A DNA stretch of 19,853 bases from positions 1 to 19,853 of the forward strand of contig CAZZDL010000006.1 of the NCBI GenBank assembly GCA_964652335.1. Reading direction: 5' to 3'. A program made the translations under genes and the position numbers. Below, piece after piece: positions 17 through 3,451 of this stretch (the stretch's first letter is position 1; the number at the start of each line of letters is the position of its first letter). Source of the DNA: Candidatus Micrarchaeota archaeon. GTDB taxonomy: Archaea > B1Sed10-29 > WALL01 > WAMD01. The notes below the pieces were generated by a model. The model did no database searches. It saw only the letters and a program-made list of their open reading frames with translations, and was not told the DNA's origin.

Positions 17-1318
17 TTAAAATCCTGGCACCTGTTCATAACTAGTCAAATCCAATAATCCATGACCTGAAAACCCTATCAAAATCACTTCTTCTCTCTT
101 CTCTCTCTTTGCGTCTAAAGCTGTGTCTATGGCTGCTCTCACTGCATGACATGTTTCTGGAGCTGGGACAATCCCTTCTGACCTAGCAAAAAGCCTCCCA
201 GCTTTAAACACATCTTCTTGAGGATATGCAATTGCATCAATGTAACCTAATTTCACAAGCAAGGAAAGACTTGGAGAATCGCCATGATATCTAAGTCCAC
301 CTGCATGGATTGGTGGTGGCACAAATTCTCGTCCAAGTGTGTACATCTTTAGTAACGGTGTCAATCCCGCTATATCTGCATAGTCGTATTCAAACTTCCC
401 CTTTGTAAGTGTTGGACATGCCTTTGGTTCAACCGCAATAAACCTTGTGTCTGATTTTCCTTTAATCTTTTCTCTCAAAAAAGGATACGCCAATCCTGCA
501 AAATTGCTTCCTCCACCTACGCAACCAATTATCGTTGTAGGGACTTCACCCACTGCGGATAATTGTTTCACTGTTTCTAGACCTATAATGCTCTGATGTG
601 TAAGAACTGAATTTAAGACACTGCCAAGCGCATAGGCTGTCTTATCGTCAGAAATTGCAAGCTCCAATGCCTCAGATATTGCAATTCCCAAGGAGCCAGG
701 ATGATCTGGATCTTCCTTAAGTAATTTTCTACCTATGCTTGTCTCTTTACTAGGAGATGGATATACCCTCGCACCAAATAGATTCATGAGTATTCTCCTT
801 AAAGGTTTTTGGTAATAACTAGCACTAACCATAAAGACATCACAATCCAATCCAAACATCTGGCAAGAATACGATAATGCAGATCCCCATTGACCCGCCC
901 CTGTCTCAGTAGTCAATCTATCAAATCCCTCACTGGCAGCATAATAAGCTTGAGCTATAGCTGTATTTGGTTTGTGTGAACCTGTCGGCGATAAATCTTC
1001 TCTTTTGTAGTATATCCTAATGCTTTCTGGTAAATTCAAATGCTTTTCTAACCCATATGCCCTAGTCAATGATCTTGGCCTACCTATTTCTATGTACATA
1101 TCTCTAAGATCCTTTGGGATCTTCACATACCTCTCCTGACTAGCCTCCAATCTTATCAATTCTTTTGGAAATATTGGTTCTAGATCCTTAGGCTTTATTG
1201 GCTCTCTAGTCGCTGGATGTAGTGGTGGTTCTAAAGGTTCTGGAAGATCAGGTAGGATATTATAATAATATCTTGGAAATTCGTTTTCATCTAGATATAT
1301 ATTCTTAGGAATATACAT
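17..1318 (-). CDS. trpB2: Tryptophan synthase beta chain, TrpB2 type (PLP-dependent)
   Basis: [11 protein letters not shown]-lysine motif, [27 protein letters not shown] and SGHGLLDL; long N-terminal extension typical of TrpB2; SD GGAGGTG at 1330-1324. No trpA in this window. Confidence 0.96.
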
Positions 1319-1511
1319 AAGGACACCTCCTTCCTCTTTTTCCTTTTGGTTTCTTTAACCTATGGGCCGGTCTGAACGGAATCCCTAACCTAGCCAAAAC
1401 TGGCTTTAAATGCCTATAAACAGTCATGTGGCTCTTTCCAACTAGAGCAGATATCTGCCTCAAAGAAAAACCATCCAAATACAATGCAAGAACTAAGTCA
1501 CCAAAGCCAAA
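1305..1511 (-). CDS. Helix-turn-helix DNA-binding reading frame, probably entered by +1 frameshift from the upstream leader ORF (the open frame extends up to 1592)
   Basis: [30 protein letters not shown] is a classic HTH pattern, followed by a basic tail. The in-frame starts (TTG 1592, ATG 1526) lack an evident SD. The stop (1307-1305) lies 14 nt inside trpB2. Confidence 0.7.
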
Positions 1512-1602
1512 GACCAGAATTAGCATTATTTCTAAACTGATAACTGGGGTAAGATCCTGTGTTGACTTTCCCAATAGAAAGTTCTCTAACAAACTTCTTC
1601 AT
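1498..1602 (-). CDS. Leader ORF, 34 aa: [34 protein letters not shown]
   Basis: Translated by hand. ATG at 1602 with SD GGTGG at 1612-1608, the same motif that precedes the starts at 3451 and 9990. TATA box TTTAAATA at 1643-1636. Ends CTT TGG CTT TGG TGA. Confidence 0.75.
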   Translation of the reverse strand: MKKFVRELSIGKVNTGSYPSYQFRNNANSGLWLW

Positions 1603-1635
1603 CTCAACCACCAGGAGGTTTTCTAAGAAAATAAA

Positions 1636-1701: not shown

Positions 1702-2280
1702 TCAATGCCCAGAATCCAAACTTCCCTTCTCTTTTAGCCTTCCCTCGTATTTTTTCATAGCCTTATCCAAAGCTGCGAGCAAGTCAACTTTACAGTCATT
1801 AGCCAAAGCAATCAATGAGAAAAAAGTATCTCCTAGTTCTAGCTCTAAGTCTTCCCTAACTCTTGCTAATTCCATCTTGTCTCTACCATAAGAATCAGCC
1901 TTTAGAATTTCTTTTGCGATTTCGCCTACCTCTGAAACAAGGTCTAGAACCCTATGCCTAACTGTAAAGTCTTTTTCTAGGTCATGGACATTCATAAATT
2001 CCTTCACCTTCTGCTGGAAGACTGGTTTAAAACCTATAACTTGAAAACCGTATTTTTTGATGTTTTCCTCTGACCAGAATTTCCAGTTATTGCTTTTAGT
2101 TACATAAGTAACTCTGACCTCCAGCTTCCTACCAGTGTATCCCGATTCTGGATCATACTCTCTCAAAACCAGGACATCACCTGGGTTGCAATCCCAGTCC
2201 GCTAGCCTAACCTCAAATGTCTTTTTTCCATCGAGTATCTTCTGAAAATACTCTGGCCAGACTTTCTTTTCAATACGCAT
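1702..2280 (-). CDS. ASCH/DUF3850-domain protein fused to a C-terminal MazG-like NTP pyrophosphohydrolase
   Basis: N-terminal KVWPEYFQKILDGKKTFEVR..D...GDVLVLREY...YTGR (ASCH/PUA-like); C-terminal DLVSEVGEIAKEILK...LELELGDTFFSLIALAN (MazG ExxE..ExxD). Start moved to ATG 2280, which follows SD GGTGAT. Confidence 0.82.
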   Translation of the reverse strand: MRIEKKVWPEYFQKILDGKKTFEVRLADWDCNPGDVLVLREYDPESGYTGRKLEVRVTYVTKSNNWKFWSEENIKKYGFQVIGFKPVFQQKVKEFMNVHDLEKDFTVRHRVLDLVSEVGEIAKEILKADSYGRDKMELARVREDLELELGDTFFSLIALANDCKVDLLAALDKAMKKYEGRLKEKGSLDSGH

Positions 2281-2284
2281 AGGA

Positions 2285-3451
2285 TCACCACAACGGATGA
2301 ATGAAAAGGCCTGATAACAGCTTTGGATCAAACCATGTGGATTTTGGTGGCATGTCTAATCCTTCATCAGCTACCGCTTCTACTTCCTCAATGCTCGTTG
2401 GATACAAACTAAAGACTAATGCGTTTCCCTTTTCTGTTACATAATTCTCATAGTCTTTAGTGGTTAGCTCCCCACCTATGAAGAAAATGTTCGGATCTTT
2501 TCTTGGATCTGTTATCCCCAAGATAGGAGACAGTATATCATTCTGTAATATCGCTACATCTAGGCTTTCTACCGTGCCATCTGGAATTTGTTTAGGAACA
2601 AGCTTGTACCACTTCATTGTCTCCTTGGCGAACATGCATATCTCGTGCTTCCTAGGCTCAGATTCTCCTTCAATCACATCAAACTTCTCTCTGACGTTTT
2701 CCATGAATTCGTCAAAGGGCATTGGTAGCTCTCTAATCACTCTGTTGTAGGGTAATATCATTACTTCATCATCGTTTGCGACGTAAGCCAGAACATAATC
2801 CCAAGGTCCTTTCCCTTTCTCTGCATTCATTTTCTTCATGTACTCATACGCAGAGGCTATTCTATGGTGACCGTCTGCAATGTACAAATCATTCTCACCT
2901 ATGATAGACTGAATTTCTGGAATCATTTCCTCAGGAATTATCCATACTCTGTTTCTCCAACCGTATTTCTCAAAGTCAAAAATTGGCTGGCCTTCCTGGA
3001 CTTTATCAAACAATGCCTTTAATTTCTCATTCTTCCTAATCGTTAACCAAACTAGGCCAGTATGCGCCTTGGTGGCCTCAATATGTCTTATCCTGTCTTG
3101 AAGTGGTTTTTCCCTAGTCTTCTCATGCCTCTTTATCCTTCCTTCTCCATAGTCCTTCAAACTGAATCCGGCAACCAAACCTCTCTGTCTAAAGTCAGCT
3201 CTAGACTGCTCATACAAGAACATTGAGTTTCTTACTAACTTAAAGGAATTAGTAATGGCGTTTTCCAAAGCTTTCCTTGCATTTTCATATTTCTGTTCCC
3301 CTTCTCCCTCAGGAAGGGTCATGTGTATATAGCTATTTGGATTCTTCCTTAGCTCTGTTAACTCCTCATCAGGAATCACGTCGTAGGGGTTTGTTACAAC
3401 CTCTTCAGGGTTTTTAGGGAGATAAACATCTATTGGGATAACCTCCACCAT
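2285..3451 (-). CDS. DUF1015 family protein (ParB/Srx-like fold)
   Basis: PYDVI, IKRHEKT, YIADGHHR and MPPKSTWFDPKLLSGL motifs; SD GGTGG. Confidence 0.9.
   Translation of the reverse strand: MVEVIPIDVYLPKNPEEVVTNPYDVIPDEELTELRKNPNSYIHMTLPEGEGEQKYENARKALENAITNSFKLVRNSMFLYEQSRADFRQRGLVAGFSLKDYGEGRIKRHEKTREKPLQDRIRHIEATKAHTGLVWLTIRKNEKLKALFDKVQEGQPIFDFEKYGWRNRVWIIPEEMIPEIQSIIGENDLYIADGHHRIASAYEYMKKMNAEKGKGPWDYVLAYVANDDEVMILPYNRVIRELPMPFDEFMENVREKFDVIEGESEPRKHEICMFAKETMKWYKLVPKQIPDGTVESLDVAILQNDILSPILGITDPRKDPNIFFIGGELTTKDYENYVTEKGNALVFSLYPTSIEEVEAVADEGLDMPPKSTWFDPKLLSGLFIHPLW

Follow-up and report, generated by a model that had tools for sequence, protein, structure and literature searches.

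The bacterial prfB gene carries the heptamer CUU UGA C, at which release factor 2 autoregulates its own synthesis by a +1 frameshift. CUU-U and UUU-U are the classic sites of +1 re-pairing, and the regulatory +1 frameshifts described sense release factor 2 and polyamines. Charged tRNA, by contrast, is sensed by leader peptides via transcription attenuation. In trpL, a short leader with a Shine-Dalgarno (SD) sequence precedes the trp genes; its tryptophan (Trp) codons report the level of charged tRNA-Trp, and the outcome is attenuation of transcription. To our knowledge, no attenuation-like control of amino-acid genes is established in archaea. Here we describe a locus in a 19,853-nucleotide (nt) stretch of DNA from a tiny vent archaeon (Candidatus Micrarchaeota archaeon, contig CAZZDL010000006.1; hereafter the window), in which a short leader open reading frame (ORF) ending in Trp codons, a +1-frame ORF for a helix-turn-helix (HTH) protein and the trpB2 gene follow one another. 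The favoured reading, that a programmed +1 frameshift at CUU UGG C gauges charged tRNA-Trp and is coupled to trpB2, is moderately probable when taken as a whole.

Three other systems come close. The retrotransposon Ty1 shifts at CUU AGG C, which has a slow Arg codon and, as outlined in the review cited, no further stimulator (PMC5009743). FseA, encoded by msi172-msi171 of ICEMlSymR7A, is an HTH factor made only when a +1 shift joins its reading frame to a short upstream ORF (PMC4755241). The archaeal transcription factors TrpY and Tar (TK0271) control aromatic and Trp biosynthesis genes (PMC6737238). With respect to trans-frame proteins made specifically in starvation by shifting at a hungry codon, the 2016 review by Atkins and co-authors remarks that 'no examples are known' (PMC5009743).

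The locus is encoded on the minus strand, and all window coordinates are given in that direction. A TATA-like box (TTTAAATA, 1643-1636) has a TGTTAC box (1654-1649) exactly 5 nt upstream of it, which is a candidate operator and putative binding site of the HTH protein. The leader SD sequence, GGTGG (1612-1608), lies 5 nt ahead of the ATG (1602-1600) of a 34-codon ORF closed by TGA (1602-1498). The 3′ end of this ORF reads CTT TGG CTT TGG TGA (1512-1498), and these two TGG are the only Trp codons of the leader. Two shift heptamers are thereby placed in tandem, CTT TGG C (1512-1506) and CTT TGG T (1506-1500), and the 0-frame stop TGA (1500-1498) comes after them. A TGA that overlaps the leader ATG (aTGA) closes the +1 frame, which is open thereafter from 1598 to a TAA at 1307-1305. 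This frame encodes a three-helix HTH domain (1508-1386) that begins at the GGC right behind the first TGG, followed by a basic, disordered C-terminal tail (1385-1305). The sole +1-frame ATG upstream of the HTH, at 1526-1524, has no SD-like motif 4-14 nt upstream.

The next gene is trpB2 (1318-17; PALP family, 433 aa). Its SD sequence, GGAGGTG (1330-1324), and its ATG (1318-1316) both lie within the 3′ end of the HTH ORF, the ATG being 11 nt ahead of the HTH stop. A simulated slip at the first CTT TGG gives 98 codons. Trp is found twice in the leader, not at all in the post-slip HTH protein and once in TrpB2. From indole and serine TrpB2 produces Trp; in the window's genome TrpE is not found and no TrpA exceeds the cut-off, and therefore TrpB2 probably salvages indole in this organism. 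A sequence-only reading of the window had described the promoter, the SD sequence, the leader and its CTT TGG CTT TGG TGA end, and these are exact to the base. Its further statements also stand: the +1 frame is open to 1305 and encodes an HTH without an SD-supported start, a slip at the first site yields a 98-codon fusion whose post-slip part is free of Trp, and TrpB2 has a single Trp. The overlap of the HTH stop with the trpB2 start is a point beyond that reading.

With prfB the locus shares a CUU in the P site with U as the next base (CTT T, at 1512-1509 and again at 1506-1503), on which tRNA-Leu could re-pair to UUU, an A-site codon that would await a scarce decoder and is followed by C, and a 0 frame that ends at once. 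The feedback logic would also be the same, in that the shifted product relieves the shortage. It differs from prfB in that the A-site codon is a sense UGG awaiting Trp-tRNA and not a UGA stop, the TGA following two or no codons later. There is no SD-like stimulator about 3 nt upstream, where the window has AAT TCT GGT and the nearest relative (G005, below) has TAT TCT TGT, neither of which is GGAGG or GGTG. In addition, the host is an archaeon, and the output would be a separate HTH ORF together with a coupled enzyme gene, instead of the body of the same protein. Ty1 shares the heptamer CUU-NGG-C, a sense codon in the A site (slow in Ty1, putatively so here) and the +1 codon GGC (Gly) (PMC5009743). 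CUU UGG C can be likened to both the Ty1 and the prfB heptamers because only the A-site codon differs. Ty1 is eukaryotic, however, and its efficiency is set by a constitutively rare tRNA, with no sensing of an amino acid and no tie to a biosynthetic gene.

The short, SD-led leader with Trp codons directly upstream of a trp gene is reminiscent of trpL. Unlike trpL, the window has no terminator or antiterminator hairpins, no significant RNA structure and no Rfam match at the locus (terminator-like sites between 1200 and 1800 number zero), and its read-out would be a change of frame and translational coupling, not transcription termination. FseA is similar in having a startless DNA-binding ORF joined by a +1 shift to a short ORF, and in belonging to a family with fused and split members (PMC4755241). 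It differs in its slip site (UUU C), in its DUF2285-type HTH and in residing on a proteobacterial conjugative element; its frameshifting, at 4-13%, damps noise, and from that account it is not known as an amino-acid sensor (PMC4755241). DUF2285 is absent from the Pfam matches of the HTH ORF of the window, which are HTH_23, HTH_38 and Sigma70_r4_2. TrpY and Tar differ in being ordinary genes whose products sense the amino acid by ligand binding.

The two-frame layout is genuine and goes beyond chance. Over 560 bases spanning the junction, two other metagenome assemblies (L014, L015) match the window letter for letter, and contigs from three sequencing runs of three studies are identical there without any indel (k-mer depths 75, 32 and 4). 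The comparison with runs was made on assembled contigs; two of the runs may be the source of the window itself, and the third covers 1325-1537. An assembly or sequencing error, or a decaying pseudogene, would not be a surprising thought for a genome that is a 51-contig metagenome bin. However, the identity among these assemblies and run contigs, the lack of a homopolymer at the junction, and the recurrence of the same frame relation across dozens of genomes, where the +1 ORF is under purifying selection, make that explanation almost negligible. The sequence-only reading had set a continuous in-frame gene against the two-frame layout; the other assemblies and the run contigs hold the same DNA, and the homologues are not continuous in-frame genes.

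Pfam analysis of the 95-aa +1 ORF finds HTH_23 at 25.2 bits (cut-off 24.6), as well as HTH_38, at residues 34-63. GerE (14.5 bits vs 23.5) and Sigma70_r4_2 (19.2 vs 25.7) stay below their cut-offs, so that HTH_23 alone among these passes. The AlphaFold (AF2) prediction for the 67 residues behind the first TGG shows helices at residues 2-11, 16-23 and 27-41, with a predicted local distance difference test score (pLDDT) of 87-92 over residues 1-40 and below 50 in the tail at residues 60-67. Helix 1 of the model begins at residue 2, and thus the HTH fold starts at the slip site. The model is a three-helix HTH with the third helix as recognition helix. Its best neighbours in the PDB, by Foldseek, are domains of the LuxR/GerE type (DegU, RcsB, LiaR, DosR, GerE), with TMq values of 0.55-0.61 and root-mean-square deviations of 1.2-1.5 Å; these matches are weak (E 0.075 or worse). 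A word-indexed protein search with the 95-aa ORF returned only the query protein itself.

The closest relative of the locus was found in a sample of 41 genomes, i.e. the window's own and 40 others, 30 of which belong to its class. Among the 41, only the window's genome (G000) and G005 have the HTH at E 2e-10 or better (2 of the 13 genomes of the order), and the same two are the only ones with trpB2 within the class (31 genomes). G005 is a metagenome-assembled genome of a Candidatus Iainarchaeum archaeon from a different family, and is the only other Iainarchaeota genome with trpB2. Its HTH is 57% identical to that of the window. The layout is the same: TGTTAC, five nucleotides, a TATA-like box (TTTATATA, which aligns with that of the window), GGTG as in the leader SD sequence of the window, an ATGA leader start, and the HTH in the +1 frame. 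The leader of G005 has 20 codons and ends in TCT TGT CTT TGG CAG TGC TGA, and TCT KGT CTT TGG, followed by TGA, is the site common to both. In the stretch up to the leader stop 22 of 27 bases agree, despite the 57% identity of the HTH. The HTH stop of G005 overlaps the trpB2 start as ATGA, and its +1 frame has no ATG, GTG or TTG between the closing TGA and helix 1; the codon aligned with ATG 1526 of the window is CCG. The tail of the G005 +1 ORF contains RGRP.

A wider family was assembled by scanning contigs from genomes and metagenomes as well as 401 Micrarchaeota genomes, of which 89 have a match. It consists of 134 small-HTH ORFs, 20 loci that encode resolvases or larger unrelated proteins having been dropped: four of the seven loci of the genome-contig scan are unrelated bacterial proteins, and 16 of the 31 metagenome-scan loci are resolvase-type or larger unrelated proteins, which are left out of all counts. 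In 38 of the 134 loci (L002, L008, L029 and L086 among them) TGTTAC is found 4-6 bases upstream of a TATA box; the box is absent from the other 96. The 'ordinary' unsplit members of the family, which start M-V-I-K-V-V, have neither box nor leader.

The box loci show the same two-frame anatomy. An ATG-led ORF places the HTH at +1 in 37 of the 38, and all 37 leaders have an SD-like motif. The leader has a TGG in its last 12 codons in 33 loci, as against five loci with an ORF in the other, control frame, one of them with a TGG. CTT is the codon before TGG in 15 of the 33, and the base after TGG is C in 25, A in seven, G in one and T in none. The HTH generally lacks a start of its own: before helix 1 the +1 frame contains no ATG in 25 of the 38 loci and no ATG, GTG or TTG in 15, and a +1 start with an SD-like motif is seen in one. 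In L029, L037, L049, L035, L055 and L107 a +1-frame stop, which arises from V-I or L-I codons of the leader (GTR ATT or CTG ATT), stands 3-4 codons before the TGG, and the change of frame is therefore confined to 4-8 codons that include the TGG. Coding constraint switches from frame 0 to frame +1. In close pairs, substitutions in the HTH region fall on third positions of the +1 frame (9-15 synonymous vs 5 non-synonymous codons), and those in the 5′ leader of L029, L037 and L049 fall on third positions of frame 0.

The link of the cassette to tryptophan genes is strong. Nine HTH cassettes are found directly upstream of trp genes on the same strand, eight before trpB2 (the window, G005, G124, G129, G338, G214, G325 and G406) and one before trpE (G396). 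A Trp codon stands 0-11 codons ahead of the stop in each of the nine leaders, no Trp follows the shift-site TGG, and at five of the nine loci the stop of the HTH and the start of the trp gene share an ATGA. The sequence-only reading had proposed to check whether archaeal trpB2 genes are preceded by short ORFs ending in (CTT/TTT)-TGG...stop with a +1 continuation. The outcome is positive: G005 has the same cassette, and a Trp-codon leader is found at 21 of 49 Micrarchaeota trpB2 genes that could be judged (six with HTH, 15 without). The genes were drawn from 53 Micrarchaeota trpB2 orthologues (E below 1e-120), six of which have the HTH; of the other 47 upstream regions, in which hmmsearch finds no HTH, 43 are long enough to judge. 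On the trpB2 strand, 15 of these 43 regions contain a short SD-led ORF whose last 12 codons include a TGG; on the opposite strand, one of 43 does. In many relatives a mere linker or trpB2 itself takes the place of the HTH.

The way in which the +1 frame meets trpB2 in these 15 HTH-less regions is informative. In six, the +1 frame from the TGG is the trpB2 frame itself; three of the six have no canonical start before the conserved N-terminal core, one has an internal TTG only, and two have a GTG. In five others (L173, L189, L192, L188, L208) the +1 frame ends in a TGA that overlaps the trpB2 ATG (ATGA), in two (L170, L202) it ends 1 nt before that ATG, and in two (L177, L209) it is uncoupled from trpB2. 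The trpB2 frame of L164, L171, L178 and L183 (also of L168 and L169) opens at a TGA that overlaps the ATG of an SD-led leader, and trpB2 is reached there only by +1 from a CTT TGG leader of 9-18 codons; a close relative, L165, has an in-frame ATG and then TGG instead. The cassette GTGGTTTGCCTTTGGCGTTAR is identical in G286, G419 and G124, and only in G124 is there an HTH behind it. The TGTTAC box occurs in 3 of the 47 HTH-less trpB2 upstream regions (in L192 it stands before TTTAAATG), and where the box precedes such a leader without HTH (G286, G331, G429), the genome has no members of the HTH family other than 'ordinary' or EIQ-type ones (E 1e-5 or better).

A genome of another phylum, G036, has a repeated form of the site (L218). 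About 200 nt upstream of its trpB2 there are three successive GAT TGY TTT TGG, with a 0-frame stop after each, and a ribosome starting at the leader ATG would need three +1 slips at TTT TGG, no fewer, to reach the TGA overlapping the trpB2 start codon; one more TTT TGG, the fourth, is out of register. No leader cassette was seen by eye upstream of trpB2 in G032 and G037.

From these data the following sequence of events can be proposed. Transcription would start from a promoter that bears the specific TGTTAC box, and ribosomes would load solely at the SD sequence and ATG of the 34-codon leader. With ample Trp-tRNA, a ribosome holding peptidyl-tRNA-Leu on CUU would decode UGG and stop at UGA a few codons on, and nothing further would be made. 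When Trp-tRNA is scarce, tRNA-Leu would re-pair from CUU to UUU and GGC (Gly) would be read; the second CUU UGG may offer a second chance to slip, and the immediate UGA would dispose of unshifted ribosomes. A shifted ribosome would yield the Trp-free, LuxR/GerE-like HTH protein, and the same ribosomes may deliver or enhance translation of the Trp-poor TrpB2. The slip probably gates trpB2 translation also, because the HTH ORF ends 11 nt inside trpB2, over its SD sequence and ATG. That the recoding is real and conserved is very likely. Given real recoding, the slip is likely to lie at the Trp codon, and given a slip there, a response to Trp is likewise likely. The interpretation offered by the sequence-only reading is supported as a whole; we infer both the position of the slip, on UGG and not on the stop, and its increase when Trp is short.

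Several observations weigh against this interpretation. No RNA run was found that contains the stretch. The locus has no stimulatory RNA structure, its fold being no better than that of shuffled sequences (z +0.56). The trpB2 gene has a strong SD sequence of its own, and coupling may be needless; of the six direct cases, two have a GTG at which trpB2 might start in the ordinary way. A product from ATG 1526 would begin M-L-I-L-V-F, like the M-V-I-K-V-V or M-V-I-L-V of unsplit family members. Immediately upstream of CTT TGG the window differs from G005 at two positions, and both changes are synonymous in the +1 frame, although with so few sites chance could give this in about 1 in 9 cases. Of 33 loci, 18 have a non-slippery codon ahead of the TGG (ACC, CGG, CGC, GGC and others). 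No trp gene is adjacent in 29 of the 38 box loci, whose neighbours include His_Phos_1 and HAD genes and many without a Pfam match. In eight Micrarchaeota loci the 0 frame is open and conserved for 9-11 codons past the TGG, which would also fit a slip at the stop. Lastly, a distant subfamily with leaders ending ...GW[CYFLS]EIQ* keeps GAAATCCAG; one member, L153, confines the frame change to GAA ATC CAG TAA, and C takes the place of W in four loci, and therefore not all +1 leaders of the HTH family can act via UGG.

If the locus were two separate units, the leader would be a regulatory upstream ORF or a small peptide and the HTH would start by itself at ATG 1526, with no frameshift; in one version, ribosomes stalled on the Trp codons 5-8 codons downstream of ATG 1526 possibly modulate the HTH. 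An in-frame ATG does exist there, but no SD sequence precedes it, and some ATG, GTG or TTG is present in the +1 frame of 23 of the 38 box loci, as against 15 loci with no canonical start and just one with SD support. The resemblance of the M-LILVF start to unsplit N-termini, and the 'LILVFG' that is identical in the +1 frame of G005 with only +1-synonymous differences, have to be set against the CCG that G005 has in place of the ATG and its lack of any start before helix 1. Moreover, in L029, L037, L049, L035 and L055 the stop that closes the +1 frame 3-4 codons before the TGG is followed by no start before helix 1, and the HTH-less relatives keep the leader and a +1 ORF ending exactly on the trpB2 ATG, for which internal initiation gives no reason. 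Self-initiation is thus a rather improbable explanation, and a start at ATG 1526, which in the sequence-only reading would refute the switch, is disfavoured by the codon not being conserved.

A +1 shift at the leader stop, by slow termination as in prfB or antizyme, or nascent-peptide control by TnaC-like sensing of free Trp, is unlikely in its turn. The 0-frame stop comes 0-2 codons past the TGG in the window, as it does in 12 of 33 box loci, and there the two sites are indistinguishable; in the window, however, the P-site codon would be UGG, and tRNA-Trp cannot re-pair on GGU as CUU can to UUU or UUU to UUU. The conservation of TFRYVH after W nearly to the stop in eight Micrarchaeota loci, and the EIQ subfamily with its four W-to-C loci and the narrow limits of L153, would favour such a reading, yet the codon before the stop varies freely (TGG, TGC, CGT, CAA, TCC, TTC and others), and TGG and the following C are kept even though the distance from W to the stop ranges from 0 to 11 codons. 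The stop of the third cassette of G036 is 7 codons past the TGG, yet GAT TGY TTT TGG is repeated three times. As to the comparison with TnaC, W is kept, and the rest of the leader and the W-to-stop distance vary between clades, one of which keeps CLW-TFRYVH. Distinctly improbable, finally, is a constitutive, unregulated low-level shift that fixes a low ratio of HTH to leader, with TGG kept because UGG tends to be a slow codon or because xxT GGN is required by the +1 frame. FseA, a split HTH activator, uses its +1 shift simply to damp expression (PMC4755241), and the 29 box loci without a trp gene alongside, as well as the overlap of TGG with a conserved Gly of the +1-frame GRP motif in some subfamilies, are in keeping with this. 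It does not account for the enrichment of the cassette before trpB2 (15/43 vs 1/43), the co-occurrence of HTH and trpB2 in the class sample, the Trp-free products and Trp-poor enzyme, or the retention of cassette bases where the +1 frame is a mere linker, GTGGTTTGCCTTTGGCGTTAR in its three genomes being the example.

The Trp-gauging frameshift may be one case of a modular archaeal amino-acid gauge. Its modules would be a leader ORF, the slip site YUU-UGG-C and, in the +1 frame, an ORF terminating on the start codon of the target; the chances of this broader proposal are about even. Three versions of the +1 ORF would then exist: it may be no more than a linker, be the gene of the enzyme, or, in the window, encode a Trp-free HTH regulator. 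If it is true, one starvation slip in the window would switch on a salvage enzyme in cis together with a transcription factor that acts at the TGTTAC box of its own and other promoters.

Full-text literature searches found no published description of a Trp-codon frameshift switch before trpB2, and nothing later than the 2016 review; nor did they reveal any frameshift at a sense codon by which an amino acid is sensed and the gene for its biosynthesis turned on. Should the proposal hold, this would be the first natural hungry-codon frameshift used to make starvation-specific proteins, and archaea would gain a simple translational counterpart to, and stand-in for, bacterial attenuation. It would also account for the HTH and trpB2 genes, dozens in number, that look 'broken' or startless in DPANN bins and are truncated or missed by gene callers. 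Synthetic biology would obtain a compact sensor of 7 nt, and whether cells ever make use of hungry-codon shifting, a long-standing question, would become directly testable.

Within the HTH family, the eight Micrarchaeota loci with the extended 0 frame (L008, L009, L018, L021, L023, L024, L027, L028) have 17 invariant bases, ACCTTTAGGTACGTCCA, 3-9 nt after the leader TGG. Frame 0 translates them as TFRYVH and frame +1 as PLGTS, and dual coding or an RNA-level signal are candidate explanations. The Trp-leader HTH cassettes of L081, L092, L103, L110 and L121, and that of L111, have their 0-frame stop within a +1-frame GRP (AT-hook-like) motif; genes of the histidine-phosphatase superfamily are downstream of the first five, and a radical-SAM/histidine-methyltransferase-like gene is downstream of L111.

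A second HTH subfamily, with the recognition helix SRMTVWRAVQ (L101, L114, L117, L122-L124, L127, L131, L136, L137, L139, L145, L148, L153, L155, L159, L162), has leaders of 9-36 codons ending ...G-W/C-x-E-I-Q-stop and the HTH in +1. The bases GGGTGGTNTGAAATCCAG are almost invariant; AAA TCC is preceded in the +1 frame by GTG, ATG or TTG in most cases and by TGG, CAG or TAG in five loci, and either an internal start or a frameshift may apply here. A third subgroup (L118, L161, L104, L142, L156, L129) has leaders of the type ...GRD[LV]L[FC]... with CTT TTC AGG, CTT TGC or CTT TAT, i.e. the same CTT-T slip motif with a Phe, Cys or Tyr codon at the A-site position. The genes downstream of these CTT TTC, CTT TGC and CTT TAT groups have no Pfam match except one Fer2. 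A scan of the 401 Micrarchaeota genomes with the strict cassette pattern GTGRTTNNNCTTNNNCGTTRR gave five matches, four of which are TGG cassettes, and a control pattern gave two; the fifth match (TCG), considered as a codon-swapped cassette, lies inside a long ORF. Phe, Cys or Tyr sensors of this kind thus have no support in these data.

The window's genome uses the standard code and has tRNA-Leu(GAG), tRNA-Leu(UAG), tRNA-Gly(GCC) and one tRNA-Trp(CCA) gene, which contains an intron; TGG is used at 11.3 per 1000 codons. No tRNA of the genome is flagged as having an odd anticodon loop, and quadruplet decoding of UGGC is therefore disfavoured. There are 886 SD-led short ORFs in the genome, 15 of them listed with [CT]TT TGG in the last 12 codons. 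Four of the other look-alikes were inspected, three of which have a long-open +1 frame inside longer genes and one of which is a short ORF pair; no further cassette is found among those inspected. TGTTAC-N5-TATA is unique in the genome (1 of 535 TATA-like sites). The upstream neighbour of the locus (1702-2331, minus strand) encodes a DUF3850/ASCH domain fused to a MazG-type pyrophosphohydrolase domain, and the end of the gene beyond it, which encodes a DUF1015 protein (2285-3451, minus strand), overlaps this ASCH-MazG gene by 47 nt.

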